A stretch of DNA of 64,000 nt from a virus: positions 4,514-68,513 of IMG/VR virus record IMGVR_UViG_3300045988_059857. One strand, given 5' to 3'. A program made the translations under genes and the position numbers. Position 1 is the first letter of the stretch. The number at the start of each line of letters is the position of its first letter. The notes below the pieces were generated by a model, which was given only the letters and a program-made list of their open reading frames with translations, ran no database searches and was not told the origin of the DNA. This document shows positions 687 to 22,137 of the stretch, in pieces.

Positions 687-3600
687 TTACTTCTCAGTCT
701 TCGCCTTCTGGTTAGCCACAACTACCTTGTTAGCATTTTCCAGCACGGCAAGAATCTTCTTTCTCAGTTCACGAATCTGTTTCATGTCCTCAGCGTTGTA
801 GGCATCCTTGCCATCATCCAAGAAACCTTTCTTCAACTCGGAAATCTCCTGCTTATCAAGGGAAATCTCGTCAATGGCATCAATGGCAGCCTTGTTGGTG
901 TTGTAGTAGCCATCGCTCTCATTTGGGGCATTATCTACAATAGCATCATATCTAGTCTTGAATGAGTTTAACTTTTCAAAGAGTTGTTTCAGCTTCATAT
1001 CCTCAAACTCATCCATAGGGGTAGCATGATTATTATAGATGTCCTCAGCATTAAGTTGGTGTGGTCTGTACTCATCACCGCTCTCCTCCGCACGTTCCTT
1101 CTTTCTTGCCTCATTGTAATCTTTTACATCTTTCTCATACAACTTGTAAGTCTTGTATTCCTCAGAGCCATAGAAACGTTCAAGCAGGGAATAATCGCCA
1201 TCAATCTTAGCTTGTTTCTTCAACTTGCTAATTGTGTTGGAAGCACGGTCGTAGTATTCCTTCTTATCCCAGAACTCATCTCCCTGCTTTTTGCTGACTG
1301 GTCTATCATCAGGGTTGCTGACAAACTTGCTTACCAATGGAATATCAGCAACCTTGATTTCCTTCCGGTCATTTAGCGACTTGGTAAGCAAACCGAGTAC
1401 CTGGCTGCCCATGGTGTAAGCACCACCGAGATAAGAAGACAAAACATGGTCAACCACGGCAGGGTTATTCAGGTTGTATCTTGGGTTACCCAAAGCATCC
1501 CATTTGTTCTGCTGCACATCAGGATAGTCGTTTCCGATTGAGTTAACCATCCTAGATGCACGTACCAACCAATCAGGAGTGCCCACGTATGCCTTGGTAA
1601 AGTTAGGGTCATACTTGTTATACTCTGTGTCCTTGAATAATGGCTTGCCAGTGAAGTCAACATTAAAAGCCAACTCAAAAACTGGGCGAATAGCATTCGG
1701 CATCAGACTGACTGCAATATTTCCGTCATATCCAGTAGGGTCGAGCGGAAGCATATCCACCACCTGACCGAGCAAGTCTTCTGCATACTGGCTCCAACTT
1801 TCCTCAGCCAACTCTCCACCCATCATCTTGGATGCAATCATATCGCCTACTCCATAGAAGGCACGGAACTCCTGAGCAAGCGGAATCTTCACATACTCAT
1901 GAGTAAACGGAACCCACATAATCAGGTTGTTTCGTCTATCCCACTTGGTGAACTGCCAGTACTTATCCTTATCATCATCACCGCCCAACAGACTCATCAG
2001 GGCAGCGTTGACGATAGGAACCAGCACACCACTCGCCAACCACGATGCAGTAACAGCCGTGAACTTGAACGGATGATGTTTGGCAAGCGCACCCAATGTC
2101 TGTAAACTCTGTACTGCTGGGTTGATGAAGAGATAGAGGTTTCTAATCATCTGCCAGCCATATTCGCCAGTACCCTTGCGGTTGAAGTTCAATGTTACGT
2201 CCTTGGCATCATTCACAGCCTCATCAATAGAACGTCCATACTGAATAGAGGTCATGTAAACCGCAAATCGGTTACTATCCTCAATCATTCTGTTCAGGAA
2301 CTCGATACTATCCATGATGGTGTGCCCTACCTTTACTGGGTTCGCCTTCCATCTATCCAAATCCTTCAAGTCATTCTTGAATTTCTTCTTCAAGTCTTCC
2401 ACATCAAGCGAAGAGACAAAGCCAGTTTCGCCACCATTCATCATGAAGTCATAGAACATCTGTTCCTTTGGAGTAGCGTTTCCGTTGTTTACCTTATCTC
2501 TCAACTTGCCGTTCTGATAGTCTCTCAGCATGAAACCGAGATTCCAAGAGGTAGCAAGATTCTTTCTTAGCAGATAGTTGTATCTGCCATCCTCACGAAT
2601 AGCGGTAGATGCCAGCGTCATGGTCAGGTCTCGGAAGTAGTTGGAAGGAATGAAGAGAGGTGAAAGACTGGTATAGGCAGCAGCCATCTTTCTGCCCAAC
2701 CAAGCAGCAGCCCTATCCAGTTTGCCGCTCTGAATCTCTCTCACTCGGTGTGCTCTAGTATTGTTCATCGCCTGAGCCAACTGCGGGTCACCATTCACAT
2801 AGATAACATACTCCTCGCCATCCTTCATCACTCTTACCTCATGTTCTCTCTCCTCGCTATGAGTCTGAGGATAGGCTATGTTCAAGCCTTCTCGCTGCTG
2901 GGTAGCATCGCCAGTCTGAGCCATATTCTCCATCTTCTGCTCGAAAGCATCAATGGTAGCCTTCACCTGATTGCTATTCATCTGAGAAGTAATCTGAGGT
3001 GTAGCAGGAATCCACTCCTCGTTGCCGTTGGCATCCGTACTCTTCACGTACCAAGCCTTGCTCAGGGTGAGAAGAGAGGTTGGATGATTCTGAGCCAAGA
3101 GCATCAGGTGTTGCTTCACCCAGTTCTTGTTGTTCAGCAGGATTCCACTCTCTGCCATATTCTCGATGTAAGCGATAGGGTCATCAGCTATAGAGGTACG
3201 TCCGTGTGCGGTCTTCAATGTCTGATTGAACGCACCCTTGCCACCACCTACATAGTCCCATACTTGGTCGGCAGTAGTGCCATCCCATCCACGGAGAGGA
3301 ATATAATGGCTATACATATCACGCACATACAGATAAGTATCTTTGCTCATCATGCCAGCCTTATAGCCATCACGGAGAATCTTCTTTGTAGCCGCATTCG
3401 TAGCATTCCAGAGGTCTTGCACCTCAGCTACATGACTACTCTCAATATCCCTTACCAGTTTGTGGGCAGCTTCCTCAAAGTCTGAGCCACCGAAGAGAGC
3501 CGATAAGCCTGAGTAATCGTAGGCGATACCATTCTCATCATAGCGATAGTCCATATAGGAAGGAGAGTATTTCGTTCTAAGTGCGTTATCTCTCTGTCTC

Positions 3601-6600
3601 CAAGTATTGAAATCCACTCTGCCAAACTCCAAATCGCTATCATTGGTAATACGGTTCATATCGCCCTTGTAAGCCCTGTATGCCGCACTTCTCTGAGCCA
3701 CGTCCTCAAAGTCTGCATCCAGTGACTTCTTGAAAGCCATCTGAGCATCACGCTCCAAGCCATGCTTAGCCATCATGTAGATACGGACATTATCATAGCT
3801 GTCACCCAGTATCTTCTTCATCTGATGATAAGCCTTTCTCAATGGCTGCAAGAACTCATTGTTGTACTCCTCAAACTCGTTCTTTCCTTTGCCGTGACTT
3901 CTGTTCTCGGCAGTATAGGCATCCTCAGCCATATTCAGGCGGTCAACACCCACTTCCTTCATGATAGCTTCCTGAGCCTTGCGGATAGCCAGCATACTAT
4001 CTTGGAAGGCGATACGTTTGAGTACAGAACCACGCTGCAACTCTCGGTTAAACTCTCCAAGGGCAGTATCATCACTCAAAAGATGCTGCTCGTAGGTTGG
4101 AGCAGTCTTCCACAGAGCCATCTGTTTGCGATACTCGTCCACTCTCTTCAGGAAGTCAACGGCACTCTCACCAGCGTTGCGTTGTGGGATGGTTGGTCGC
4201 TGTGCATCCTTTGGCAGGTTGTTATCCTTCTTCCACTGGTTCAGGTCATGCTCAAACTGGTCATAGCGCAAGGAGAATCTGGTATTACCCACGATATTGG
4301 CATTGTTCTCATCGAATATCACGTAGTTGTAATCATCTTTCTTTGCACCTCCAAAGATGGTTCCAGCAGGGTATTTAATACCAACAAAGCCAGCATCACT
4401 TAACAACTTACTAGCTGCTTCTTTAGAACCAAGCATAGAGGAAAGTTCATCGTATAGGTCTTGACCTCTTACCTTACCATCAACACGACTTGGATAAATG
4501 GCCTCAATAGGTTCCTTGCCAATTCTAACCAACTCCTTATTTACCTTGTTCAAATGAGATTTTTTCAATTTATTCTCCCAGTCAAGATAATCTCCATTAT
4601 CATCAGGAATATCCACATCGTAAAGATAAGCAATATCATCAGGAACAGCTATTTCCTCATTCTTCTTTGCAAGAATATCGCTAAGTTCCTTCAAATTATC
4701 ATCATCAGGGAACATTTCTAGAGCAGAAGAAAGGTCTTTTCTCATAGCATCCAATCCCTTATCTACATCTTTATATTTATAGATATAGTGTCTTACCATA
4801 TCTTTGTTATTGGCAGACATATCTGTCACAAATTCAAAACCGCCATTATCTTTCCTTATCTTGGCACGTCTTGTGTAGTCCTCAGCAATATCCTTAGAGT
4901 TGGTAACATAACCACCCCAGCCAAATGCTTGTGAACCTTCGCCTTCACCCATGTGGCTAAAATCGAACTTGTCGAAGCTAGCACCAGTACCATGATAGGT
5001 ACGGATGCTAAACTTAGGGTCAGAGCCAGTAAGCAGAGGAGCAATAACATGCTCGGTCAACTGGGTAGGTATTCCGTTGCCGATGATGGTATGGCTCAGA
5101 TTCTCGGAGAATGGCATCTTGTAATCATCGCTCACTCCTGATACTCTAGCGAGCACTCTTCCCATGGCACGATATACCTTGCCGTCAGGCATCACAATCA
5201 CGTCACCGCTCTTGGTTCTAAGTGTTGGCAGCAGTTCGTCAGCGAAAGCATGAGGAATCTTGCCGTCAGCGTAGGCACTACCCATCACATATAATGGCTT
5301 ATCAATGTTTCGCCAGTCAATACCATCAGCCTTCAAGCGGACATCCATCCAATTAGCAACACCATTCTTCTTCTCGGTTAGGGTCGGGATAATATCAGCC
5401 ACAGCTTCATACCATCCGCTCTTGTGTTCCATCTTCTTTGGCTTAGCAGGGAGTTTACCATCACGAACAGCACGGGCAATCAATCTCTCTCGGTTAGTAT
5501 ATCCGCCAAAGTCAGCAGCGTTATAGACATCTGCATCCCAAGTATATCCGTTGGCATCAAGCGCATCCGTGATAGTCTTCATGGCATCCGAATCCTTATA
5601 TCCCTTCACATTCTCAATAGTCACCACCTTTGGCTTAACCGAATTGATAAACTCCGCTGTACTAGCAGCAGTCTCCTTGTCAAGTTCAACCTCGGCATGG
5701 TTATTCTTCGCCTGAGAGTAGTTCTTGCAGACTGGGCTAGCATGGAAATACTCCACCTCGCCATCAATCTGCTTAACCAATTCCTTAGGGTCAACGTCAC
5801 GGACATCAGCAGTAACGATGTGCTGCCCGAAGTTGTTGCGATAAACACCGCTTATCTTCTCGTCATACTCCACAGCTACCACTGGGTCGATGATACCCTT
5901 CAAGCCTTCCTCAACAAGACCGCCACCGCTAAAGTAGGTTCCAGCCTTAATGAGAGTGCCATCAAGGTTCTTCAATGAGAACTTAGGGTCACGCTCAATA
6001 GCTTCTGCAATATGTATAGCCTTTTTGTTGGCTCGTTTCCATCCCTCTGGTTTCGCCATCATAGATTTCAGAGAGAAACGGATGTCATTATTGTCGGCAG
6101 AGAAATCGCCATTGTTATTCTCGGCAGACTTGATTTGGTTAGATTTGAACACAACGTAATCATCCGTTGTATATTGCATCGAACCGTAATCAACACCATC
6201 TTTGATGTTTTTGAAGATAACTCCATCATATCCATTCTCCTCTGCCCAGTTAGCCCAATCGTATGTGTCCATCGTTTTCCCATCATGTTTAATAGAATTG
6301 TACAAGCTTCCCTTACAATCTATAACAAGTGGATTCTTTGCACTCAGATATACAGCATAGTTATTATAACCATACTCATAGGCATTATCCTCACTACTAT
6401 TAAAGAACAGACCACTATTAGGAAGTCCATCTACCTCTCTTTTGAACACCGTAAACGGCTCATGAGACGTATCATACATTTTAGTCTTTTCATTCCATAC
6501 GCTTGTAGTTTCATCATTTGTTGTTCCATGATAAGCTACAAGAGGTTCACCATTCTCATCTACCACCTTGGAAGCATTCTCAGGGTCATTCTCCCAGTCT

Positions 6601-9600
6601 CCGAACCAGTTCTTGAAGTTGGTAGTACGGACGGTTGCCCATTGTTCTGCATCCAGTTTGGTTTTCTCACCATTAGGAGCTATCATGTATGTTCCGTTTG
6701 CCTTGGCATCAGCCACAATCTTCTCCTTCTCATCTTTCAGCGAGAAGCGGATATTGTCGCTACTATTGATAGCTTCATTGAAGGCACGACTGCGGTCACC
6801 ATCCTTTTTCGGGTCGTAGTCATACATTGGCAAGCCAGCATCCGATATACCCTTACGTACATCATCGCCCAAATTGTTTGGAACTACAGCAGCAGCAAAC
6901 TCGTTGAGACGGAGAGGTCTGTTGTACTTAGTCTCAAAGTACGCACTCTTCAACTCTGTCTGTACTGCATTCTTCAAGGCATCCAGTTTCTTCATAAAGG
7001 TAGGAGTAAGGGTAATGCCATATTCTTTCTTGGCATACTTCTTAGGGTCAGACTGCAATACAATATCGTGAAGTCTCTGCTCGCCATAAAACACATCATT
7101 ATACAAGAACTTGGCAAGGTCATAATAAACCCCATTCCATTTCTCGTAAAACTCTTCCTTATCCTTATTAGAAGACAACTTATCCTTGTTGGCACGCATT
7201 TCGTCTGTAGAATCAACACGACTAGCCAACTTTGCGATAAAGCTACCAAACGAGGTATATTCACTTCCATTGGTCTGCCCATCTGCTTCTTCCCTCATAG
7301 CCTTTGAAACATTTTCAAGAGTCTCAGGCACATACTTTCGGGAACCATCCTTAGTATAGCCACGGAAGATACGGTTCTTCGTTCCGAACTCATCCAGTTT
7401 GTTCTCCTGCCATCTGATGTAATCATCATAAAGACCATTCTTGTTGACGTAATTACTAGCCTTCACCTTAGACAGATAGAAGTCATACTTCTTGGTATCG
7501 TTGTGCTCCTTCACAATATCCCCAACAACCTTCTTCACATCTTTTTTTCTTGGACTGCCGTCCTTGTTAAGCAAGGTTGGCGCATAGTCACGCTCAAAGA
7601 TTTCCTTAGTCTGTTTTCTTACTTGTGGATTGATAGGGCTAGCCTTAACGCCAGTCTCCTTATACATCTTTCTTCTTACCTCCAAAGAAACCTTTTCCCA
7701 AGTAGGATGGATGATGGCATGCTTAGCCAGACTTGTAACCTTTTTATTCAGTTCAGGGTCAGTCTTCATACTATTCAGAATATCCTCAGCAGTAGGATGG
7801 TCACTGATAATCTCTTTCCAGCGATAATCAATTCTAGAATCATACTCCTTAATATCAATACCCTTTTCCTTCAAGTACATCAACTCCCAAGCAGGAGCAT
7901 TATTGTCGCTCAGGGCATCCTTTGCCTGTCTCTCAATCTCAGCCTTAGCTCCACTTGGGTAATCAAGGCTATCAACCCAGTCTTCAAACTTCCGATACCC
8001 TTTTTCACTCATTTCTCGCTCTACGGAAGGATAACGTTGAGTGTAGGCATCAGTTATCCAAGTACCGCCAGTATTGCCAGTACGCTTATCCAAAAGGGCA
8101 GAAGGAGCGATGAAGGAAATCTCTCCAAAGTTGTCGTGAGCAGTCTTGTTGGTATCAATCACAGCCAAAGAAGGATTGGCAAATCCACCCAGCTTCAAAG
8201 CCTTTCTCAGTTTCTCCTCAGTAATGTTATGCACTCCTGCAAGAGTTTTTTCATCCTTCAATGAAAACTTTTCGCCATTTTTCTTGGTAGTTTCAAAACC
8301 TTTTATTATCTTTGCAACCGTAATAGAGTTGTTGGAATTGCGGGGAGAGGTCATAGCTACGTCTCCACTTTGACCGTCCAGCAGCTCTATTTTTGTTGCT
8401 TCATAGCTATATAGCTTTGTTTTTTCGTGTGTTCTTACATTCTCTTTCAAAGTAATCTTTACACCATAGACCTTATCGCCTATATTCACCGCACCATAAC
8501 AACGATGTATCATAACATCAGGATTGACACCAAAATCCTCACTACGTTCATTTCCTACCTTGTTACGGTCAACATGCTGAATAGCATCTACACTCTCACG
8601 AAGTATAGAAGGCAAGACCTTCAAAACGCTCATGTGTACATCTTTGTTTGCACTCTTCTTAACTGCCTTTTCAGACAAATACTTACCAACAGCAGTATTA
8701 CTGATATTAATCTCACCCTTGCCACCAGTTTCTTCATCATTGTAAGTTCTAACAATATTCTTCTTAGCCCATTCTCTTGCCTCAGCATAGTTCTTAAAGC
8801 CATGTTCCTCATCAGCATCAACAATATTTACAGGAGTATTTGCTATCTCAGGAGTCAAGCCATCTTTCTTCAACGAGAACTTGGTATGACTGGTAATCTG
8901 AGCATTGTTCTCATCAAAGATAACATAGTTCATCTTGCCTTCCTTGTTGCCGCCAGTATTACGCTGAGCGATAACCTTCACACCGACAAAGCCAGCCTTG
9001 GAGAGAAATTCGCTTGCAGCCTTGTCGCTACCTAGGGCATTCGTCAAATCTCTATAAAGTTCCTTGCCAGTAGTCAAAGTTGGTTCAAGCCAAACCTCAT
9101 GTTCGTTACCATCAATCTTGTAAGTATCATACATACCAACCTTCTTGTACTCCCAGCCATCAGCCTTGAATACCTTTGGCAGACGCATAATCTTAGCAGC
9201 ACCTAAAGGCTCATCCCAGCCGATGTAGTTGCGACCAGTATCATCAGGAATATCAACAGAGTAGAGGTTGCGTGGTTTCTCCATGGAATCCAACTTCTTC
9301 TGCAAAGCGTCAACCTTAGTTTTTACATCTTTGATGTCACTTTCCTTAGTTTTTATACTCTGCTTATATCTTTTAACCTGTTCGCTATAATACTCAACAT
9401 CAGATTCATACATATCAACACCTAAACCAGTGCCACTTTCCTTTGCCTTTGAAAGTTCTTCCTTAGCCTCATCAAGTCTTGATTGGTACAAATCTACATA
9501 GGATTTTGCATCTTTCAACTCATCCTCCAATAAATCAAGACCAGACTTTGTATCTATCAAATCCTGTGCGACAGTATCATAGTCCTCATTAATCTTGAAG

Positions 9601-12600
9601 TCAGAAGGATTCAAATCTTTCAAAACTTTCAACTCATCTTGAACTTGTTTGGCTTTCATCTTCGCAAATGGGGTGTCGCCAACGGATGCAAGTTTCTTCT
9701 CATCAGCATCTATCATCTTTGATATAGCCTCTTTTGCGGAAATATTAAACTTATCCATATCAAGGGCAACTTGATAGATAATTGATGGAGTTTTATACGT
9801 CATAGGCTTACCTTGATACATCAGTCTTGAAGGCGCATTCTTTTTTGCATTTGCCTTGGCATAAGCCTTGGCGATACCTTCCACTTCGCTCACATAAGTA
9901 CCCCAGCCGTAAGCCTGAGCACCTTCACCGCTACCCATAAAGGAGTGGTCGAACTTGTCAAATGATGCTTGGGAGCCATGATAGGTCTTGATGGAGAACT
10001 TGGTATGTTCTGTAATCTTCATATCCTCAGGTTTGAAGATAACATAGTTGATTTCGTCTCCTTCAACACCGCCCATGATTGTTCCAGCAGGGTACTTGAT
10101 GCCAGTAAAACCAAGAGAAGATAGGAACTGGCTTGCAGCCTTTTGACTGCCCATCCATCTAGATAAACGATTGTACACAAATCGTATATCATCCTCAACA
10201 TTTCCATTGTCATAGGTAGTTTCCCTAGTTAGAGCATGAGTCTTCACAAGGAGTGGAATCATCTGCTCCTTGTCTGCATTCTTGATGTAATCATACAACA
10301 GAGTTCTGAACACAATATCCTTTGATGCCATATCATCAAGGGTCTTAGCATCCAAGCCATAAAGACCTTCAATTATCTTTGTTGCAACCTCATCAGATGG
10401 TTTCTTCTCCCATTCCAGATAGTTACTGCCATTATCCTCAGGAATATCTACCTCATAGAGGTTCTTTCCACTTGGAACGAAATCATCCCAAGAGATACTA
10501 TCCAGTTTAGGCATAGCACCCTCCAATACTTCAATTCTCTTCTTGATACTATTAGAAAGAGGATTGTTCGGATGCTTAGCAATCAATGCCTTTTGTCGCT
10601 CGATAGAACCAGCAACACCTTCCTTGAATGTCCCTTCATGATTCTTGTTGTTCTCAATGAATGAACTCAAAGCAGCCTTTTCCAACTTGGTCAACGGAAT
10701 ATCGCCCTTATATATGTTTCTGCTGCCATAATCTCTTGAAAGATTAGCATAGCTTTTTCCTATCTCTTCCGATGAAGTAACGTAGCCACCCCAACCGAAT
10801 ACTTGGGAGCCAGCACCCTCACCCATGTGGTCGAAGTCAAACTCTGTAAAGTCAGCACCGCTACCATGATATACCTTTAACGAGAACTTAGGAGCATCAG
10901 CTATCTCCTGATTGATGCTGTTCACAACATCATCAGTAACAATATCGCCCTCCTGAATCTGCTGAGGTTCACGACCAGCATTCTTCACAAGTTCCGCTTG
11001 CTCTGCTCTGGTCAAGATACGGTTCACCTTCATCGCACCAGTAATCACCCAAGGGTCAGTCTCAGGGTTCGGGTTTGTACGATACATATAGAAACCATCA
11101 GTAGGCAGATGTTTCAAGCCAGCGAGTGAATGCTGATACTTGCCCGATGGATTGATACCCTCTTGGCGAGCTTCCTCCTGATAATCAACGTCAGCAGCAT
11201 ACTCCACCTCAGCGAAGACAAAGTTCTTAGGGAAGAGAGTCTTGTTGCCCTCAGCATCCTTGCGGTTAAACTGGATAGCATAAGGCACTACACCAAGATG
11301 CCAGCCTGGTCTATAGGCTAACTTACCGCTACCGCCTTGTGTTCCCTTGCCGCCCTGCTTAACCTGAGGTCTTCCAGTCTTGCTTTCTCCTGCAATAGGA
11401 GCCGCATCAGCATCGAGCCACACACCAACTGGAGTAGCAGCACCATTAGGGTTCGATACCATAGGTGGATAGAGTTTGCCATCCTTCAATACGAACACCT
11501 TGTAGCCGATGCCCTTCTTCTTAGGTTCAGGCTTTTGACGGAGAGAGAAGGAAACATCTTCACCAGTCTCGGAGTTTGTCACTTCCCCATTGGCAGTCTT
11601 CACGTAGGCTTGTTCAATGGAGCGGATGATGTTCTTGGTCACATCGCTATACTCTGTACCATAGAAAGCCAACTTAATCTTCAGCAATATCTCATGGATA
11701 GCAGCGAGCAGAGGATGGGACATCTTCATAGCGAGAGTGTGAGCTAAGTTGATGTCACGAATCATTTCGCCTACCGCATCAGCAACAACCTCCTCAGCAT
11801 AGTAATCTCTAGCACGTCCAGAGAATCCAGCATCAGAATATCTCTTCATAGTCTCATCTACCGCCTTGTCGAAGGCATCAGAGCCATAAGAATCAATCAC
11901 AAGCTGAGTCAACTCATTGTATGCAGCAGGGTTCAGGTTCTTGATTTGGTGAGTCATTTCGTGACCGAAGATAAACTGAGCACCTTCCGTGATAGAAGAG
12001 TCAAGAGTGATGAAGATTGTACGATGAACGTTGCCATCGGCATCCTTGGTTTCCTGAATCCAGCCGTTGCCCAACTTATCAGAGTACTGCCATTGAATGT
12101 TAGCACCCATCATCTTAGCCAGTCTCTCGAAAGCCTTGCGAGTCTTCTCGCCCACGATATTGTCAACGACCTTCATATCATCCACCTTATTCTTCTCTAC
12201 GTCAGCAGCACGCTCGGCAGTTGTCTGCTGCTTGCCATTCTCCTTAGCAGAGAAAGGAAGGTCTTCCTCAGGTCTCTGCTCACCGAACACCTTATTCTGC
12301 TCCTCTACCTTCTTGTCAACAAACTCCTTGAACTCTCTAGCAGTATCGCCATCATAGAACATTGCACCTTGTGTCTGCTCATTATCCATATCAGCAGAGT
12401 GTTTAAGGTCACGACCAACATTAAACTCCTCATGCAGCTTCCATAGTTGGTCAAAACCTTGCACGTTATCAGGGAAATAAACTACCTGATTGATAGACTC
12501 ACCCCTATCAGGAACCAACGTACCGACACCGAATCCATCCTTACACATAATAAACAAGTCAGCATAGTTATTCCACTTAGATGTAGGGTCTATCTCTAAG

Positions 12601-15600
12601 CCTTGTTCCTTTGCCCATTCTGCAAGTTCTACGACATATTCATTGATAGGTTCACCTTCCTTGTCAAAAGCAGGGAAACCTAACTTCTCGCCATCTTCCT
12701 TAGCTTTCTGCTGTTCAGGAGTGAGAGTATTTATATTATCATTTATATTGTCATTTATATTCTCATTATCCGATTTATTAGACAAATCATTAGATTCATT
12801 ATCCGATTCATTATCCAACTTCGTCTCTGACTTCGCCTTCAACTCAGCCTTTTCATCCGACTTCGCCTTCAACTCGGCCTCTGACTCAGCCTTGTGCTGC
12901 TCAGCATAGGCTGCATTCTCCTGAGCACGTTTCTGCTCTTCAAGTATGTTCTCTGCCTGAGCAATGCGAATATTTTCAACAAAGTTCCTCGCTTCCGATG
13001 CCTTGAAACCGCTATTGAGTACACCGATAAGTACGTTACGAATATCCTGAGTGTCTAGTGATTCAAGGTTGGATGGACGATTCTCCCACAAGCTATGAAC
13101 GAGCGCATCAATAGTAGTACCCTTGCCATCAGCAGCGAGCAACTGAGTCTTGGCAAAGTCTTCTCTGCTCAATCCAGTCTCTTGCTTAACACCCTTGCTT
13201 GTCTCTGTTCCCTCATAGTTGAGAGAGTGAGCACCGAGGTTGCTAGCCACATACTCCTCAGCAGTAAGCGGAGTTGTGTCAGTCACGTCAATACCAGTAG
13301 AGTCATACAGACGATGAAGGAGAGAACCGATAGTTTCTCTATAGAGTTGTGATACAGCCTCAGCATCATCCTTGACCGCACTCTTCAAGCGAGCGAACTT
13401 TCTTCTTGCCTTCTCAATGAGTTCCTTTCTACCCTCAGCAGTATCTTCCACCTTATCCAGTTGTCGCTCGTTATAAGCATCACGGATAGCGATAGCAGAG
13501 TCATAAGCCGCCTGAGCATCAGCAATCGCCTTCTCCTTGGCATCCTTAGCAGCCTTCTGCTCCACGAAAGTCTTGCCCTTCACGGTCATGTTGCTAGCCT
13601 TATCGAGTGCCTTCTTTGCATCAGACACATATCCAGATACGATACTATCTGCATCCTCACCGAACTGAGTATCATACAACTCAGCAGTCTGTGCGGCAGT
13701 CAGCTTCGAGAAGTCAGGATTGCCATCCTCCAGCATAGGCACGATGGTTCCATCTTCAAGAGTAATGGCAGGAGCAGCAGGAGTCTGTTCTGTTGCAGGA
13801 GTCTCAGCAGATTCAGGAGCAGCAGTCTCGCCCTCTATTGTCGGAGCTTCCACCTCTATCTCACCTCTATTCTCTCCTCTATTATCCTCTATCATTGAGG
13901 TCTCAGCCATCGCTTGCTTGTACTCATCAAGAGACATTGAAGTAATCATGCTTACATTCTTCTTGCTCACAGCATGAGGAACGAGAGAGCCATCACTCTT
14001 CAACTCAACTACCTTAGCTTTAGCACCTGTATCACGAATAAGGAACAATCTAGAGTCAGGATATTTAGTGTTACCATCCTTGTCAAGCACATCAACGAGT
14101 ACAACGTTTCCATCATCATTGAGAATCTGATTGAAATCAAATGAAGGTTGAGTTTCTTCTGTCTCCTGATTCTGCTGGGCAGCACGTTCATTCTCCAACT
14201 GCTCACGCTGAGCCTTGGCAGCTTCCAGTCTCTTCTGGTCTTCCAAGTCTTTCAAGTTCTGCAAGTCTTCAAACGAATAAGGATTCTCCACTACGTTACC
14301 ATCAATAGAGATAGAAGCAGTACCATCACCATAGTCAGCAAGCACCTCATAGGTATGCTCCATACCATCAGCACCAGTCACATTGAACTGGGAACCAACT
14401 TCAACGGTTCCATCAATGATGCCAGCCACTTCCTTGATAGCATTCTCTTTAGCATCAGCTACCGCCTGAGCCTTCACATCATCAGCAGGGAGTTCTTCAC
14501 CCAGTTCAGCGAACATCAACGCATCTGCATGTTCAACGCTATTGGTTGTCGGGTCATAGTATAGAATCATATCATCGCTATTGCTTACATCAATGGAGCC
14601 ATCATCATGAGTAGCAATATTACCACTGATAATATACACACCATAGTCTTCCAAGCCACCTGATGCTTTGATGGTAGAATTACGGACGGAACCACGACTC
14701 TGGTCTGTATACATATCAACTCTCTGTTCTGCCTGATGAGCAGCGAGGTCAACCTTATCTTGTGCATCATCAACCACACCTTGGTATCGGGCAGAAGACA
14801 ACTGGTAGTCATAGATAGCTTGGTCAAGTTTATCATCCTGCCCCGTCAGTGATTCCAGTTCCTCATCACTCATGGCAGATAGCTGCTGCTCAGAGATACC
14901 CAATGCTGCTGCAAGAGTCTTCATCTGGTCTTCCTGCTGAATCTGAATATCATGCTTGTCTGCATCATCGGCATCATGTCCCTCAGAATAAGCATTATCA
15001 ATATCAGTTTGATGCTGCTCCTCAGGAGTTGTAGACTCATTGGTAATCTCCTTGGCATTCATTTCAGCAGTCTTGGCAATATTGTAGCCACGCATCTTCA
15101 TCAGGTTCACACCATAGTTGACAGCAGCATTAATCTGCTCCTTGGTCATGGTATCTCTCTGACGGAGAATATCAGCCAGCACACCGCCCATCTGCTCGTT
15201 GGTTGCATTGTCAATCTTATCCTTGATGTCTGCCCAGTTATCGCCCATAAGGTTCTGTGCATCACTATCAGCCACGTTCACCTTGTTGCGGAATCGGTAG
15301 TACTGAGCACGATTGTAGATACCTTTTACTGGTCGGGAGCCAGCACCCATCGCATACATAGAACCAACAGAGATAGCCATACCACCGATGATGTCGAGTT
15401 GCTGCTTAGCATCAAGGAGGTCGCTCACCTTACCTTCACCATCCAGCAGGGCATGAAGAGGAATACCAATTTCCTCCTCCATCACTTCCTCAGCGAAACC
15501 ATTGATGCCGAACTTCTCCATCCACTTCTTGGAATTGGTATACCATCCACTCTTGCCGATATTCTTGAAGAACTCAGCAGAAGTATTCATACCATGTTTC

Positions 15601-17198
15601 TCCATGAAGTTGACAGCACCCTTCTTGATACCATAGTTATGACCAAACAACTTCTCTGTGTAGTTCTCCACCATGGCAGAAGTCAGACCTTTATAGAGAG
15701 CAGTACCCATAGACTCACCACCCTCATGCAGAAGGTTTCCGTTTTCATCGAATGTACCAAACTTATAATTGCCCTGCTCATCCTGATACAGATTACCCAG
15801 ATGTCGCTGCATGATGTCTGCTCCAGTCTTCAAAGCCTGTTCAGTTCCAGCCATGGCATACGAGCCGATAACATCACCAGCCACGATACCAGTGTTCTTC
15901 AAGATGGCAGCACTCACCTTGCCCATGCCACGCTTAGCAGCAAACTTCAAGGCTCCACGACTGATGCCCTTGGTAATACCACCATAGCCGCCAGTCAGGA
16001 AGAAGTCAGCCATAAATGGGAGACTCTGCCCTGCAATCTTAGTCCAACGATAGACGTTACCCATCTTCTCGTCTTCGAGAGCCGCAGCAGCATCCGCACC
16101 CAGTTTACTCTTCAAGAGCATCTTATCCGAACCAGAAAGAGGAATGTTGTTATCCATCTTTGTCTTGATACGTTCCATCTGCCCCATGGTAGCGAAGTCT
16201 GTCAGACCGAAATCCCATGTCTTGGCAGTAAAGGCAGTATTGTCAAGAGCCTTCAAGGCATCCTCACCCCAGCTACTTGTAGGATATTGTTTCACCGCTT
16301 CAAGCGCACCAATCTGCTCATTAACCAGAGCAAGAGAGGTAGCCAACTTGTTGCTATAGTCACTCTGCTCAGCAGTTCTTCCGTTACTAGCACCAATACT
16401 AGCACCATAAGAGAGAAGAGGATTGCCATGAAGACGATGGTCTTCCGCTATAGCAACTTCAATCTCCTTCTTTCGGGCATAGGCATCAGCCAGTTTCTTG
16501 TCAAACTGCTTTTGAGCACCTTCCTCAGTAAGATAGGTTCCATTCTTATTGATGTTCTCCTGCAAGTCATAGTTACCATTCTTGTCACGAACATCAAAAG
16601 CAGATGGAATCTCACCAGTATCAACCGCATCCTGATAAGCAATATCCTGTGCTTGACTCTGCTCAGCTTCAGGAAGAGAATAAACATTCTCATTGTCCGA
16701 GGTAACGTATGCGCCAGCCTTGCCAGTCTCAGGATTGTAAACGAAATCATCCTTCACCACATTGTTTGCATCACCACCATAAGGAGTCTTGTGTGTACCC
16801 AAGTTCACACGACCGAAATCCTTCTGCTGTTTCTTCTTGCGTTGTTTCAGTCGGTTGTATCTGCCAGCATTGTTCATTGCCTGCTGAGCACTAGCCGATA
16901 TAGCTGCTGCCCCAGCAGAGAAACGAGCACGGTCAGCAGCACTCATAGGAACACTACCGCCCTTCGCTCTTGATGAAGTCCTGCTACGAGGTTCAAAGAG
17001 TGCAGAGTAAAAACGCTCATAAGTAGATGGAACATCAAAGTTCTGAGCCTTCAAGTTCTCATAGATAGCGTGTCTATTATCCGCACCGCCCTTTCCGTCT
17101 CTTGTCAGAGCACTCTCAAACTTATTGTAATCATCAGGCACATCATAGTTCTGTGCTTTCAGATTCTTGTATAAAGTGTATAATGGTCTTTCTGCCAT
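687..17198 (-). CDS. giant multi-domain 'polyvalent' protein (5503 aa): HExxH peptidase motif, four YHG[ST] ART-like modules, C5-cytosine MTase domain, large unassigned N- and C-terminal regions
   Basis: A single uninterrupted ORF with ATG at 17196-17198 and TAA at 687-689. The motifs are listed in the sub-features below. It is the third gene of an operon driven by the late promoter at 19061-19103. Confidence 0.9.
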   Translation of the reverse strand: MAERPLYTLYKNLKAQNYDVPDDYNKFESALTRDGKGGADNRHAIYENLKAQNFDVPSTYERFYSALFEPRSRTSSRAKGGSVPMSAADRARFSAGAAAISASAQQAMNNAGRYNRLKQRKKKQQKDFGRVNLGTHKTPYGGDANNVVKDDFVYNPETGKAGAYVTSDNENVYSLPEAEQSQAQDIAYQDAVDTGEIPSAFDVRDKNGNYDLQENINKNGTYLTEEGAQKQFDKKLADAYARKKEIEVAIAEDHRLHGNPLLSYGASIGASNGRTAEQSDYSNKLATSLALVNEQIGALEAVKQYPTSSWGEDALKALDNTAFTAKTWDFGLTDFATMGQMERIKTKMDNNIPLSGSDKMLLKSKLGADAAAALEDEKMGNVYRWTKIAGQSLPFMADFFLTGGYGGITKGISRGALKFAAKRGMGKVSAAILKNTGIVAGDVIGSYAMAGTEQALKTGADIMQRHLGNLYQDEQGNYKFGTFDENGNLLHEGGESMGTALYKGLTSAMVENYTEKLFGHNYGIKKGAVNFMEKHGMNTSAEFFKNIGKSGWYTNSKKWMEKFGINGFAEEVMEEEIGIPLHALLDGEGKVSDLLDAKQQLDIIGGMAISVGSMYAMGAGSRPVKGIYNRAQYYRFRNKVNVADSDAQNLMGDNWADIKDKIDNATNEQMGGVLADILRQRDTMTKEQINAAVNYGVNLMKMRGYNIAKTAEMNAKEITNESTTPEEQHQTDIDNAYSEGHDADDADKHDIQIQQEDQMKTLAAALGISEQQLSAMSDEELESLTGQDDKLDQAIYDYQLSSARYQGVVDDAQDKVDLAAHQAEQRVDMYTDQSRGSVRNSTIKASGGLEDYGVYIISGNIATHDDGSIDVSNSDDMILYYDPTTNSVEHADALMFAELGEELPADDVKAQAVADAKENAIKEVAGIIDGTVEVGSQFNVTGADGMEHTYEVLADYGDGTASISIDGNVVENPYSFEDLQNLKDLEDQKRLEAAKAQREQLENERAAQQNQETEETQPSFDFNQILNDDGNVVLVDVLDKDGNTKYPDSRLFLIRDTGAKAKVVELKSDGSLVPHAVSKKNVSMITSMSLDEYKQAMAETSMIEDNRGENRGEIEVEAPTIEGETAAPESAETPATEQTPAAPAITLEDGTIVPMLEDGNPDFSKLTAAQTAELYDTQFGEDADSIVSGYVSDAKKALDKASNMTVKGKTFVEQKAAKDAKEKAIADAQAAYDSAIAIRDAYNERQLDKVEDTAEGRKELIEKARRKFARLKSAVKDDAEAVSQLYRETIGSLLHRLYDSTGIDVTDTTPLTAEEYVASNLGAHSLNYEGTETSKGVKQETGLSREDFAKTQLLAADGKGTTIDALVHSLWENRPSNLESLDTQDIRNVLIGVLNSGFKASEARNFVENIRIAQAENILEEQKRAQENAAYAEQHKAESEAELKAKSDEKAELKAKSETKLDNESDNESNDLSNKSDNENINDNINDNINTLTPEQQKAKEDGEKLGFPAFDKEGEPINEYVVELAEWAKEQGLEIDPTSKWNNYADLFIMCKDGFGVGTLVPDRGESINQVVYFPDNVQGFDQLWKLHEEFNVGRDLKHSADMDNEQTQGAMFYDGDTAREFKEFVDKKVEEQNKVFGEQRPEEDLPFSAKENGKQQTTAERAADVEKNKVDDMKVVDNIVGEKTRKAFERLAKMMGANIQWQYSDKLGNGWIQETKDADGNVHRTIFITLDSSITEGAQFIFGHEMTHQIKNLNPAAYNELTQLVIDSYGSDAFDKAVDETMKRYSDAGFSGRARDYYAEEVVADAVGEMIRDINLAHTLAMKMSHPLLAAIHEILLKIKLAFYGTEYSDVTKNIIRSIEQAYVKTANGEVTNSETGEDVSFSLRQKPEPKKKGIGYKVFVLKDGKLYPPMVSNPNGAATPVGVWLDADAAPIAGESKTGRPQVKQGGKGTQGGSGKLAYRPGWHLGVVPYAIQFNRKDAEGNKTLFPKNFVFAEVEYAADVDYQEEARQEGINPSGKYQHSLAGLKHLPTDGFYMYRTNPNPETDPWVITGAMKVNRILTRAEQAELVKNAGREPQQIQEGDIVTDDVVNSINQEIADAPKFSLKVYHGSGADFTEFDFDHMGEGAGSQVFGWGGYVTSSEEIGKSYANLSRDYGSRNIYKGDIPLTKLEKAALSSFIENNKNHEGTFKEGVAGSIERQKALIAKHPNNPLSNSIKKRIEVLEGAMPKLDSISWDDFVPSGKNLYEVDIPEDNGSNYLEWEKKPSDEVATKIIEGLYGLDAKTLDDMASKDIVFRTLLYDYIKNADKEQMIPLLVKTHALTRETTYDNGNVEDDIRFVYNRLSRWMGSQKAASQFLSSLGFTGIKYPAGTIMGGVEGDEINYVIFKPEDMKITEHTKFSIKTYHGSQASFDKFDHSFMGSGEGAQAYGWGTYVSEVEGIAKAYAKANAKKNAPSRLMYQGKPMTYKTPSIIYQVALDMDKFNISAKEAISKMIDADEKKLASVGDTPFAKMKAKQVQDELKVLKDLNPSDFKINEDYDTVAQDLIDTKSGLDLLEDELKDAKSYVDLYQSRLDEAKEELSKAKESGTGLGVDMYESDVEYYSEQVKRYKQSIKTKESDIKDVKTKVDALQKKLDSMEKPRNLYSVDIPDDTGRNYIGWDEPLGAAKIMRLPKVFKADGWEYKKVGMYDTYKIDGNEHEVWLEPTLTTGKELYRDLTNALGSDKAASEFLSKAGFVGVKVIAQRNTGGNKEGKMNYVIFDENNAQITSHTKFSLKKDGLTPEIANTPVNIVDADEEHGFKNYAEAREWAKKNIVRTYNDEETGGKGEINISNTAVGKYLSEKAVKKSANKDVHMSVLKVLPSILRESVDAIQHVDRNKVGNERSEDFGVNPDVMIHRCYGAVNIGDKVYGVKITLKENVRTHEKTKLYSYEATKIELLDGQSGDVAMTSPRNSNNSITVAKIIKGFETTKKNGEKFSLKDEKTLAGVHNITEEKLRKALKLGGFANPSLAVIDTNKTAHDNFGEISFIAPSALLDKRTGNTGGTWITDAYTQRYPSVEREMSEKGYRKFEDWVDSLDYPSGAKAEIERQAKDALSDNNAPAWELMYLKEKGIDIKEYDSRIDYRWKEIISDHPTAEDILNSMKTDPELNKKVTSLAKHAIIHPTWEKVSLEVRRKMYKETGVKASPINPQVRKQTKEIFERDYAPTLLNKDGSPRKKDVKKVVGDIVKEHNDTKKYDFYLSKVKASNYVNKNGLYDDYIRWQENKLDEFGTKNRIFRGYTKDGSRKYVPETLENVSKAMREEADGQTNGSEYTSFGSFIAKLASRVDSTDEMRANKDKLSSNKDKEEFYEKWNGVYYDLAKFLYNDVFYGEQRLHDIVLQSDPKKYAKKEYGITLTPTFMKKLDALKNAVQTELKSAYFETKYNRPLRLNEFAAAVVPNNLGDDVRKGISDAGLPMYDYDPKKDGDRSRAFNEAINSSDNIRFSLKDEKEKIVADAKANGTYMIAPNGEKTKLDAEQWATVRTTNFKNWFGDWENDPENASKVVDENGEPLVAYHGTTNDETTSVWNEKTKMYDTSHEPFTVFKREVDGLPNSGLFFNSSEDNAYEYGYNNYAVYLSAKNPLVIDCKGSLYNSIKHDGKTMDTYDWANWAEENGYDGVIFKNIKDGVDYGSMQYTTDDYVVFKSNQIKSAENNNGDFSADNNDIRFSLKSMMAKPEGWKRANKKAIHIAEAIERDPKFSLKNLDGTLIKAGTYFSGGGLVEEGLKGIIDPVVAVEYDEKISGVYRNNFGQHIVTADVRDVDPKELVKQIDGEVEYFHASPVCKNYSQAKNNHAEVELDKETAASTAEFINSVKPKVVTIENVKGYKDSDAMKTITDALDANGYTWDADVYNAADFGGYTNRERLIARAVRDGKLPAKPKKMEHKSGWYEAVADIIPTLTEKKNGVANWMDVRLKADGIDWRNIDKPLYVMGSAYADGKIPHAFADELLPTLRTKSGDVIVMPDGKVYRAMGRVLARVSGVSDDYKMPFSENLSHTIIGNGIPTQLTEHVIAPLLTGSDPKFSIRTYHGTGASFDKFDFSHMGEGEGSQAFGWGGYVTNSKDIAEDYTRRAKIRKDNGGFEFVTDMSANNKDMVRHYIYKYKDVDKGLDAMRKDLSSALEMFPDDDNLKELSDILAKKNEEIAVPDDIAYLYDVDIPDDNGDYLDWENKLKKSHLNKVNKELVRIGKEPIEAIYPSRVDGKVRGQDLYDELSSMLGSKEAASKLLSDAGFVGIKYPAGTIFGGAKKDDYNYVIFDENNANIVGNTRFSLRYDQFEHDLNQWKKDNNLPKDAQRPTIPQRNAGESAVDFLKRVDEYRKQMALWKTAPTYEQHLLSDDTALGEFNRELQRGSVLKRIAFQDSMLAIRKAQEAIMKEVGVDRLNMAEDAYTAENRSHGKGKNEFEEYNNEFLQPLRKAYHQMKKILGDSYDNVRIYMMAKHGLERDAQMAFKKSLDADFEDVAQRSAAYRAYKGDMNRITNDSDLEFGRVDFNTWRQRDNALRTKYSPSYMDYRYDENGIAYDYSGLSALFGGSDFEEAAHKLVRDIESSHVAEVQDLWNATNAATKKILRDGYKAGMMSKDTYLYVRDMYSHYIPLRGWDGTTADQVWDYVGGGKGAFNQTLKTAHGRTSIADDPIAYIENMAESGILLNNKNWVKQHLMLLAQNHPTSLLTLSKAWYVKSTDANGNEEWIPATPQITSQMNSNQVKATIDAFEQKMENMAQTGDATQQREGLNIAYPQTHSEEREHEVRVMKDGEEYVIYVNGDPQLAQAMNNTRAHRVREIQSGKLDRAAAWLGRKMAAAYTSLSPLFIPSNYFRDLTMTLASTAIREDGRYNYLLRKNLATSWNLGFMLRDYQNGKLRDKVNNGNATPKEQMFYDFMMNGGETGFVSSLDVEDLKKKFKNDLKDLDRWKANPVKVGHTIMDSIEFLNRMIEDSNRFAVYMTSIQYGRSIDEAVNDAKDVTLNFNRKGTGEYGWQMIRNLYLFINPAVQSLQTLGALAKHHPFKFTAVTASWLASGVLVPIVNAALMSLLGGDDDKDKYWQFTKWDRRNNLIMWVPFTHEYVKIPLAQEFRAFYGVGDMIASKMMGGELAEESWSQYAEDLLGQVVDMLPLDPTGYDGNIAVSLMPNAIRPVFELAFNVDFTGKPLFKDTEYNKYDPNFTKAYVGTPDWLVRASRMVNSIGNDYPDVQQNKWDALGNPRYNLNNPAVVDHVLSSYLGGAYTMGSQVLGLLTKSLNDRKEIKVADIPLVSKFVSNPDDRPVSKKQGDEFWDKKEYYDRASNTISKLKKQAKIDGDYSLLERFYGSEEYKTYKLYEKDVKDYNEARKKERAEESGDEYRPHQLNAEDIYNNHATPMDEFEDMKLKQLFEKLNSFKTRYDAIVDNAPNESDGYYNTNKAAIDAIDEISLDKQEISELKKGFLDDGKDAYNAEDMKQIRELRKKILAVLENANKVVVANQKAKTEK
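4281..5015 (-). other. YHGT module 3 (aa 4062-4306), ART-like
   Basis: The module starts KFSIRTYHGTGASFDKFDFSHMGEGEGSQAFGWGGYV and ends AASKLLSDAGFVGIKYPAGTIFGG...YNYVIFDENNANI. Confidence 0.55.
5020..5965 (-). other. C5-cytosine DNA methyltransferase domain embedded in the giant ORF
   Basis: Motif I YFSGGG is at 5919-5936. Motif IV is FHASPVCKNYS, with the Cys codon at 5727-5729 (aa 3824). Motif VI is TIENVKG at about 5601-5621. The motif VIII-like segment is YTNRERL. The C-terminal motif is IIGNGIPTQL at about 5059-5088. Confidence 0.8.
6070..6625 (-). other. fourth, shorter YHGT domain resembling the ART domain common in polyvalent proteins
   Basis: The sequence runs FKNWFGDWENDPENASKVVDENGEPLVAYHGT ... 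GLFFNSSEDNAYEYG ... DDYVVFKSNQIKSAE. The His codon is at 6528-6530 (aa 3557). The family name is recalled from memory and has not been searched. Confidence 0.5.
8883..10001 (-). other. YHGS module 2 (aa 2400-2772), ART-like with coiled-coil insert
   Basis: The module starts KFSIKTYHGSQASFDKFDHSFMGSGEGAQAYGWGTYV and ends AASEFLSKAGFVGVKV...MNYVIFDENNAQI. A central Lys/Glu/Asp-rich insert looks helical. Confidence 0.55.
10002..10889 (-). other. YHGS module 1 (aa 2104-2399), ART-like
   Basis: The module starts KFSLKVYHGSGADFTEFDFDHMGEGAGSQVFGWGGYV and ends AASQFLSSLGFTGIKYPAGTIMGG...INYVIFKPEDMKI. It is paralogous to modules 2 and 3. Confidence 0.55.
11620..12220 (-). other. Zn-metallopeptidase-like domain inside the giant ORF
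   Basis: HEMTH (aa 1746-1750) is encoded at 11949-11963, in the context ITEGAQFIFGHEMTHQIKNL. Domain borders are approximate. Confidence 0.6.
12729..12880 (-). repeat. in-frame tandem DNA repeats / low-complexity acidic segment of the giant ORF
   Basis: There are 3 copies of a 12-bp unit, atttatattNtc, at 12729-12764, encoding NINDNINDNIN. A 17-bp exact repeat, gacttcgccttcaactc, occurs at 12829-12845 and 12859-12875 and encodes AELKAKS twice. Confidence 0.8.
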
Positions 17199-22013: not shown

Positions 22014-22056
22014 AAAGATAGATATACATTACCTATACATCAGATACGTGTTAGTT

Positions 22057-22077
22057 TTGTTACTATTTTGTTACCCA
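22057..22077 (+). repeat. 21-bp direct repeat copy 2
   Basis: Exact match to 21811-21831. Confidence 0.8.
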
Positions 22078-22104
22078 AAACTTGCGAGTAACAAAAAAAA
22101 TGCT

Positions 22105-22112
22105 TATCTTTG
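22105..22112 (+). promoter_or_regulatory. -7 box TATCTTTG for the integrase
   Basis: Matches TAnnTTTG and lies 25 nt upstream of the ATG at 22138. Confidence 0.5.
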
Positions 22113-22137
22113 CAGCAGATTTATAAAAGAAAGGCTT

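Follow-up and report, generated by a model that had tools for sequence, protein, structure and literature searches.

In a 64,000-nucleotide stretch of viral DNA (IMG/VR virus record IMGVR_UViG_3300045988_059857, positions 4,514 to 68,513; hereafter the window), one gene on the minus strand (687..17198, from the open reading frame (ORF) list and its translation) encodes a giant protein of 5,503 amino acids (aa) in which a pentapeptide, [KR]FS[LI][KR], recurs at the borders of its cargo modules. From sequence comparisons, we tentatively propose that these motifs are the recognition and cleavage sites of a phage polyprotein, at which effectors would be freed from an ejection-protein chassis. In this view its two ends, 1,883 aa at the N-terminus and 1,195 aa at the C-terminus, form a conserved chassis and hold between them nine cargo modules (ADP-ribosyltransferase (ART)-like modules, an RNase-like module, a DNA methyltransferase, LPD3 and others), each starting with [KR/S]-F-S-[LI]-[KR]. 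The protein belongs to the polyvalent proteins as defined by Iyer et al. 2017 (PMC5512222): it is phage-encoded, with phage genes in the window, and its single ORF joins many disparate effector domains in one polypeptide.

The strict motif occurs nine times in the giant protein (Phe at aa 2105, 2401, 2774, 2978, 3485, 3708, 3740, 4063 and 4308), and a tenth copy, VSFSLR (Phe at aa 1884), has Ser in place of Lys or Arg at position −1. The initial annotation had listed ten [KR]FS[LI][KR] copies, which is correct for nine of the ten, VSFSLR departing from the pattern; all ten Phe codons that it had placed match the translation of 687-17198, its block sizes of 221, 296, 373, 204, 507, 223, 32, 323 and 245 aa were reproduced, and the ends that it described as free of the motif (aa 1-1883 and past aa 4308) are so, with even the relaxed pattern [FYW]S[LIVM][KR] absent from both. 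By our count, 3 of the 10 copies read exactly RFSLK. Composition predicts 0.022 strict copies and 0.17 copies of FS[LI][KR] (Poisson P ~3 × 10−21 and ~4 × 10−15, respectively, for the observed numbers), and the shuffling check that had been proposed gave maxima of 2 (strict) and 3 (FS[LI][KR]) over 20,000 shuffles of the protein. Elsewhere in the window, the motif lies in no genuine ORF.

Pfam matches on the 5,503-aa protein comprised ART-PolyVal (four times), LPD3, PBECR5, a C-5 DNA methyltransferase (DNA_methylase), LPD38 and a weak LPD14; three of the four ART-PolyVal modules are of the 'YHG' type, to which DUF3990 was matched as well. With all segments on the minus strand, the motif-free N-terminal chassis (aa 1-1883; 11550..17198) is followed by cassette 1 (aa 1884-2104, 221 aa; 10887..11552), which has no Pfam family and is led by SFSLR at 11538-11552; cassette 2 (aa 2105-2400; 9999..10889), a YHG-type ART-PolyVal/DUF3990 module with KFSLK at 10875-10889; cassette 3 (aa 2401-2773; 8880..10001), YHG-type with a coiled-coil insert and KFSIK at 9987-10001; cassette 4 (aa 2774-2977; 8268..8882), LPD3, with KFSLK at 8868-8882; and cassette 5 (aa 2978-3484; 6747..8270), a PBECR5 RNase-like module plus a helical region, with KFSLK at 8256-8270. 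Then come cassette 6 (aa 3485-3707; 6078..6749), ART-PolyVal, with RFSLK at 6735-6749; cassette 7 (aa 3708-3739; 5982..6080), a 32-aa mini-cassette with RFSLK at 6066-6080 and thus motif copies on both sides; cassette 8 (aa 3740-4062; 5013..5984), a C-5 cytosine DNA methyltransferase with KFSLK at 5970-5984; cassette 9 (aa 4063-4307; 4278..5015), YHG-type, with KFSIR at 5001-5015; and the C-terminal chassis (aa 4308-5503; 690..4280), which carries LPD38 (E = 5 × 10−23) behind the tenth copy, RFSLR, at 4266-4280.

The placement of the motif at domain borders, as first proposed, was borne out at all ten cargo borders: Pfam matches begin 2-62 residues past a motif copy and no copy lies within any match. 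The ART-PolyVal matches start at cassette residues 3, 4, 4 and 63 (residues 63-215 of 223 in cassette 6), LPD3 spans residues 32-150 of 204 in cassette 4, the PBECR5 match begins at residue 5 of cassette 5, and DNA_methylase covers residues 17-313 of the 323 in cassette 8 (E = 5 × 10−31), where tails of ~10 residues hold the motif. Two AlphaFold2 (AF2) models (aa 2960-4100 and 1870-2425), built from shallow custom alignments, were of low quality (mean predicted local distance difference test (pLDDT) scores of 58 and 52); the eight motif copies that they contain all fall in stretches of pLDDT<50 that separate better-predicted cores, in cassette 5 right ahead of the first strand. In the low-confidence model of cassette 2, the last two motif residues run into the strand of the YHG Tyr (an L-K-V-Y strand).

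Homologues show the same motif at the borders of modules that have been extensively rearranged. The best 120 homologues, from Prevotella-type phages, prophages and metagenomes, hold 706 strict copies, and cutting the proteins ahead of each.FS[LIVM][KR] yielded 931 pieces that clustered into ~80 segment families of near-constant length (for example, 32, 73, 221 and 323 aa), with 93 different cassette orders among 121 proteins and 156 distinct cassette-pair junctions bearing the motif. In over 100 homologous polyvalent proteins that differ by shuffling of their modules, the motif keeps to the module junctions, the point that the initial annotation had suggested checking. Modules headed by it include ART-PolyVal, DUF3990-like, LPD3, LPD13, LPD23, PBECR1, PBECR5, InPase, MuF_C and DNA_methylase, along with several segment families that have no Pfam family. 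No motif interrupts the N-terminal segment family (1,617-2,018 aa; family 8, which opens 37 homologues), and the C-terminal one (1,195-1,211 aa; family 5, in 42 homologues) is likewise uninterrupted, and the architecture is therefore one of chassis, cargo and chassis, with a minimal arrangement of segment families 8-1-4-5 and, in the giant protein studied here, 8-1-0-0-28-4-7-2-3-0-5. In 90 homologue copies, the first site is SFSLR. Matches to the C-terminal 1,195 aa numbered 5,277 representatives of a 50%-identity library, the longest of these proteins having 7,236 aa, and the N-terminal chassis is weakly similar to the N-terminal parts of BF1-TP2 gp68 and BS-TP4 gp3 from Bacteroides phages.

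The mini-cassette, FSLKSMMAKPEGWKRANKKAIHIAEAIERDPK (5982-6077), is exactly 32 aa long in 73 homologue copies (segment family 2) and is nearly always found ahead of the methyltransferase module; in other proteins, a 73-aa variant (family 11) that shares GW.xANKK.IHIA with it stands in its place. If the junction sites are cleaved, the mini-cassette would come off as a free peptide.

The part of the chassis that ends at the first junction site (~aa 1600-1883; 11550..12401, minus strand) is a gluzincin-like putative metallopeptidase region. It contains HEMTH (aa 1746-1750; 11949..11963, minus strand), the sole HExxH of the giant protein, and EEVVAD (aa 1802-1807; 11778..11795, minus strand), a candidate third zinc ligand of the ExxAD form; we take EEVVAD to be the zinc ligand and the pair to be the gluzincin signature of clan MA(E), as in enzymes of the neprilysin/thermolysin type. 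The Glu ligand expected downstream of HExxH in gluzincins is conserved: FGHEMTH, then 53 residues, then EE..AD..G are invariant in 12 sequences down to 27% identity (alignment A3, with invariant positions E229/E230, A233 and D234). From HExxH to the first motif copy is 138 aa, and 138-139 aa in 57 of 70 homologues.

Domain and motif type also co-occur almost perfectly. Among 270 sequences, 78 combine the HEMTH-type domain with three or more motif copies, a single one combines it with fewer, 136 lack both, and 55 have the motif without the HEMTH domain. The last group appears to consist mostly of N-terminally truncated ORFs, 38 of which start at the Met of '...KMSHPLLA...', in the last helix of the domain, and in truncated copies on chromosomes the homology runs upstream through the ExxAD region and then stops, HExxH having been deleted. 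We therefore rejected these motif-only ('Class-2') proteins as evidence against a link to the peptidase, as they are 5'-truncated remnants that begin within the peptidase domain. In one protein (P0093), cassettes that are ~80% identical sit on a different chassis without HEMTH, and there the junctions have relaxed to PFADR, RFYIK, RFLR, KFAQ and IRFHR, one junction having no motif.

Two further observations concern this region. At aa 1825-1829 of the peptidase-like domain (KMSHP, 11709-11723), the giant protein reads AMKMSHPLLA; in certain homologues, such as P0022, the position aligned with KMSHP is taken by a true motif copy (AQKFSLRLNHPVLA), which could be a pseudo-substrate or an internal site. 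On Prevotella chromosomes (L001 9878-17860; L004 10001-16684; L005; L006), the 5'-truncated copy of the giant gene occupies one fixed locus, flanked by BipA and a Gp49/HTH (HigBA-like) pair and by an OMP/S15 gene, with no phage genes within 10 kb; its ORFs are intact (1,800-3,100 aa), start at the Met in the last helix of the peptidase domain, end in MuF_C and keep strict junction motifs, with a cassette content that varies by strain.

FS[LI][KR] is restricted to a clade in which identity over the C-terminal chassis is at least 52%, and the strict type has so far come only from uncultured Prevotella phages or prophages; at ≤41% identity, homologues of the chassis have neither FS[LI][KR] nor the HEMTH domain. 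In a sister clade, RFR[DE] is found at equivalent junctions (59 copies observed vs 9.4 expected), namely after the ART-PolyVal tail (DNxGxFDxxNxDIRFRE), directly before VYHGS and before the start of PBECR5; this tail is strongly conserved there as DNxGxF[DS]xxNxDIR[FY][RQS] (P0121-P0269; BF1-TP2 gp68, L002 1548, 1754 and 2480). BF1-TP2 gp68 has three IRFRE copies and no HExxH, and across the sister clade RFR[DE] did not correlate with any HExxH type, proteins lacking HExxH being slightly richer in copies. As the sister clade often lacks HExxH, a link to a peptidase in the same polypeptide is not superfamily-wide. BS-TP4 gp3, the one giant virion relative of its group that was scanned, has neither FS[LI][KR] nor RFR[DE] and no junction motif, and a single universal motif for the superfamily was rejected, FS[LI][KR] being confined to its clade and the sister clade having RFR[DE]. 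Common to the two clades is a polar or acidic linker that closes with a basic residue and then Phe or Tyr, after which the next two to three residues are clade-specific.

Because unrelated folds share the motif, its role must concern something shared by all modules rather than the modules themselves, and the clade-specific versions suggest a partner that co-evolves with the phage lineage. The pentapeptide would accordingly be a short linear motif of the linkers between modules, with a single common partner that reads it; the gluzincin-like domain (HEMTH...EEVVAD), ending just ahead of the first copy, is the most likely candidate for this partner. The predicted peptidase would free itself first, at SFSLR, 138 aa past HExxH; the remaining sites would be cut next, probably between [KR] and F, with the hydrophobic residue at P1', and the effectors and the C-terminal chassis would be set free either inside the capsid or after ejection into the cell. 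A preference for a hydrophobic P1' residue is typical of many zincins. The initial annotation had also named a head protease as a possible processor, and this idea found no support: family searches found no prohead or head-maturation protease in the window, where the capsid and ejection genes look T7/SU10-like, and phages of that kind normally have no head-maturation protease. A wider role of the motif as a head-protease site in other phage proteins was rejected as well, none of the real ORFs in the window carrying it. A protease as the partner fits best because the modules are self-contained enzymes with different targets, because the layout mirrors that of viral polyproteins, because a conserved zincin-like domain ends at the first site, because no other protease is encoded nearby and because zincin-mediated processing of polyvalent proteins was already proposed by Iyer et al. 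2017, who named no site (PMC5512222).

Several points weigh against cleavage by this domain. Its assignment as a peptidase depends on two short motifs: aa 1-1883 gave no Pfam match, including to MPTase-PolyVal, even at E≤1, and searches of the PDB with the peptidase-like region, as a single sequence and as a profile, gave no match either. The association of motif and peptidase is limited to one clade and hence phylogenetically confounded, the sister-clade proteins richest in RFR[DE] (P0225, P0187 and BF1-TP2 gp68) have no HExxH or recognizable peptidase, and the 5'-truncated chromosomal copies retain strict motifs without HExxH. At three YHG modules, the motif abuts the catalytic YHG and may form part of strand 1, in which case it would be reachable only in the unfolded chain, and the AF2 models in which linkers were assessed are both of low quality. 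MPTase-bearing N4 vRNAP, ArdC and TraC1 are delivered unprocessed (PMC5512222). We hold our confidence in the cleavage reading to somewhat short of even because the link is confined to one clade and the sister clade is without a cis peptidase.

An extension of the cleavage reading, which we regard as a long shot, is that the ~600-kDa protein cuts itself between [KR] and [F/Y/L]-S-[LI]-[KR], so that at least nine enzymes would be freed whose Phe, Tyr or Leu N-termini act as a ClpS degradation timer. These three residues are primary destabilizing residues of the bacterial N-degron (ClpS) pathway, and they are the ones found at the aromatic position of the motif across the clade (F, Y and L), which would fit such a timer; the drift to Tyr and Leu occurs in some members, for example P0133, with AYSIR, KLSLR, two copies of RYSLK and KYSLR. 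If true, the timer would clear injected toxins soon after they have acted, which would suit a phage able to lysogenize the same cell, and a temperate double-stranded DNA (dsDNA) phage would be using a polyprotein strategy known from eukaryotic RNA viruses, with a plug-and-play cargo bay.

The junction motifs kept in truncated chromosomal copies and in the HExxH-less RFR[DE] clade would be explained if the motif were instead a docking tag that is not cleaved, N-terminal on each module and bound by a phage-encoded partner (a chassis domain, gp14/gp15-like core proteins, the portal or the capsid interior), which would load or organize the cargo in the capsid core or guide its unfolding and refolding, module by module, during ejection. 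We consider this possible but unlikely. A docking tag accounts equally for conservation at the peptide level, for the location of the motif in the cargo part only, for a common partner of unrelated folds and for the clade-specific types, and it suits a giant gene that lies within a gp14/gp15/gp16-like operon and has relatives that are abundant virion proteins invisible in cryo-electron microscopy maps. However, no candidate receptor has been identified, enzymes acting on DNA, RNA, NAD+ and pyrophosphate would remain tethered to a 600-kDa chain, and neither the fixed distance of the first copy from the conserved HExxH...ExxAD domain nor the decay of the strict motif on a chassis without this domain (P0093) is explained.

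Exchange of modules is evident, and the motif could be no more than a linker or a joint for shuffling, lacking any trans partner: an in-frame seam, common to all exchange partners, at which modules are swapped and both neighbours stay unharmed, for which the VENN and His-box delimiters are a precedent. Cassette turnover is extreme (the 93 arrangements among 121 proteins), and 48% of the ends of BLAST high-scoring segment pairs (HSPs) fall ≤15 aa from a motif, against 12% under uniform placement. Even across clades, the HSPs with the distant BF1-TP2 gp68, which shares its ART and PBECR5 modules with the giant protein in reverse order, end within 2-13 aa of junctions in both proteins (0-2 aa at 5 of the 6 ends). 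At a single Prevotella chromosomal locus, the DNA homology of two alleles breaks off exactly at the final codon of KFSVK and, for two other copies, 18-33 codons upstream. Although recombination operates on DNA, codon identity among the ten copies is as chance predicts (70 pairwise identities observed vs 65.1 expected from the codon usage of the ORF), with Ser encoded by five codons (TCN and AGC), Leu/Ile by five and Lys/Arg by a mixture; selection therefore acts on the peptide. No nucleotide conservation beyond what the peptide requires, of the kind expected of a His-box/VENN-like DNA delimiter, was found, and the motif as a DNA repeat or recombination signal was ruled out on the chance-level codon diversity. 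The longest shared run is ~8 nucleotides, below the need for homologous exchange; several breakpoints lie in the flanking tails, outside the motif; and a passive seam needs no invariant F-S-[LI] with basic flanks over more than 40 module families. These breakpoints show that exchange takes place within or close to the motif, which does not drive it, and the FS[LI][KR] motif is inherited with the downstream module (H of the +3 residue is 0.04 bit given the right side vs 0.40 bit given the left). Of the initial suggestion of a modular shuffling linker, the shuffling is thus real, whereas the motif is unlikely to be a recombination substrate, DNA homology going only as far as the amino acids impose it; as an explanation of the motif, we find the seam improbable.

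Binding to a host factor, either as an APIM-like β-clamp site or as an Hsp70/DnaK site that would direct modules to the replisome or recruit chaperones for drawing in and refolding the ejected chain, is very improbable. The literature searched does not mention the motif in the context of polyvalent proteins, and the sole relevant match to the pentapeptide came from work on APIM: 9 of the 10 copies fit its consensus, [KR]-[FYW]-[LIVA/ST]-[LIVA]-[KR], and the three RFSLK copies correspond to an experimentally tested variant, peptides of which bind the E. coli β-clamp (dissociation constant <50 µM), their overexpression stopping growth and lowering mutagenesis (PMC7261172). This match was obtained by a literature search for the exact pentapeptide and may be coincidence. 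Unlike APIM, which occurs once per DNA-repair factor, the motif is repeated at the borders of enzymes with unrelated targets, and clamp targeting would be of no obvious use to an RNase or a pyrophosphatase; RFR[DE], RFHR, KFAQ and PFADR, at equivalent junctions in relatives, break the consensus, the sister-clade RFR[DE] at the same junctions among them. The alternation of basic, hydrophobic, any, hydrophobic and basic residues resembles an Hsp70/DnaK site, but Ser at +1 is invariant in the clade, and neither the clamp pocket nor DnaK would require Ser. BF1-TP2 has, immediately behind its giant gene, a convergent gene for a J-domain protein (gp67, L002 18286-18918; DnaJ, E = 1 × 10−20) that has predicted membrane segments; no such J-domain gene occurs in the window.

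That the motif is a structural element of the modules (a first β-strand or N-cap) or a mark of shared ancestry among duplicated modules is barely credible, for although it abuts YHG in three paralogous YHG cassettes, with the L-K-V-Y strand in the AF2 model, and distant YHG modules have an aromatic or hydrophobic residue 4-5 positions ahead of YHG, 7 of the 10 copies precede non-YHG regions, which either fall into different Pfam families or have no family, the motif opens more than 40 unrelated segment families, and it lies 5-60 residues outside Pfam match boundaries. The first β-strand of one repeated fold, named in the initial annotation as an outcome that would undo its own reading, is refuted as a general reading, since at least eight unrelated Pfam families have the motif ahead of them.

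In several viral polyproteins, the junctions are defined by a protease (for example, those cut by picornavirus 3C between Q and G, by potyvirus NIa and by flavivirus NS3). The giant protein resembles them in having a short, lineage-specific motif at each boundary of unrelated products and a protease, here a putative peptidase, embedded in the chain with the first site beside it. Those polyproteins, however, belong to eukaryotic RNA viruses and have a fixed gene order and proven cleavage, whereas the giant protein belongs to a dsDNA phage, only its cargo part is delimited, the module order varies and cleavage is putative. Polymorphic toxins offer a second comparison, with delimiters such as VENN in CdiA and PxxxxDPxGL in Rhs, the Rhs/Tc motif being also an autoproteolytic site. 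They too have a short conserved peptide at the border of swappable toxin cassettes, but with one delimiter before a single C-terminal toxin instead of up to 10-13, one per internal module, and both the delimiter sequence and the putative protease differ. The closest relatives are the polyvalent proteins already described, likewise single phage-encoded polypeptides with many unrelated effectors (ART-PolyVal, PBECR, InPase, MTase and LPD), predicted to be delivered along with DNA, in which embedded zincin-like peptidases were proposed as processors (PMC5512222). That paper names no cleavage site or inter-domain motif (the word 'linker' occurs 0 times), and the peptidase-like domain here is not matched by Pfam MPTase-PolyVal. 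The protein itself thus belongs to a known class; new beyond the 2017 description and the literature searched are the delimiter motif, the chassis/cargo layout and the cassette combinatorics.

Polyvalent proteins, which rank with the largest proteins of phages, are believed to bear first-strike counter-defence enzymes. Whether they are processed, and at which places, has been a question since 2017, for which the motif supplies exact candidate sites along with a candidate enzyme; of the candidates so far, it is the best for the places where these giant proteins may be cut into separate enzymes. It also defines a natural unit of exchange, the module with its N-terminal tag, and would allow thousands of giant proteins to be parsed automatically into modules, many of which have no known family. 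If cleavage is true, it would amount to a polyprotein system in a tailed phage and a natural scaffold for delivering arbitrary protein cargo into gut Bacteroidota.

The neighbourhood of the gene is consistent with a role as an ejection protein. A T7 gp14-family internal virion protein gene (18356..19030, minus strand; Pfam T7_gp14, E = 3 × 10−6, 27.7 bits vs a cutoff of 27), whose product resembles BF1-TP2 gp70, lies two genes upstream of the giant gene, and between them is a 374-aa ORF (17228..18352, minus strand) in the position of a gp15-like ejection protein, a role suggested by gene order; profile searches matched no family. Given the gp14-family gene two genes upstream, the giant gene stands in the place of a gp16-like ejection protein, as in the gp14/gp15/gp16 set of T7; Pfam found no T7 gp16 similarity or lytic transglycosylase domain in the giant protein. 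The LPD38-bearing C-terminal region is homologous to giant proteins of Stx, Bcep22-like, Ralstonia, Vibrio and Bacteroides phages, among them phi24B gp47 and the DarB-like gp69 of Bcep22/JC1, and two of these LPD38-bearing relatives were detected in virions by mass spectrometry (phi24B gp47, bioRxiv 10.64898/2026.04.10.717836; JC1 gp69, PMC9144972), in papers that map no fragments of them. By analogy with them, the giant protein of this gut phage is probably packaged and ejected into the host. DarB-like giants such as JC1 gp69 carry large helicase and methylase blocks (PMC9144972).

Phage genes in the window encode a portal, a large terminase subunit, an SU10-type capsid protein, tail fibres, an endolysin and an integrase. 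The last, a tyrosine integrase (22048-23301, plus strand; phrog_1, E = 6 × 10−55), lies ~5 kb from the giant-gene operon and indicates that the phage is temperate; BF1-TP2 has the same arrangement of integrase and repressor close to its giant gene. Megablast against 50,697 phage records found no near-identical phage genome. At its N-terminus (aa 1-59; 17022-17198), the giant protein has tandem ~35-aa repeats (Y..LKAQN[YF]DVP..Y..F.SAL), and the N-termini of BF1-TP2 gp68 and BS-TP4 gp3 likewise have short duplicated motifs (GDFS.FE... and GKKY.V...). Two long ORFs run antisense within the giant gene (6012-7307, plus strand, 431 aa; 14952-16973, plus strand, 673 aa) and are most likely by-products of its codon bias and strand skew.

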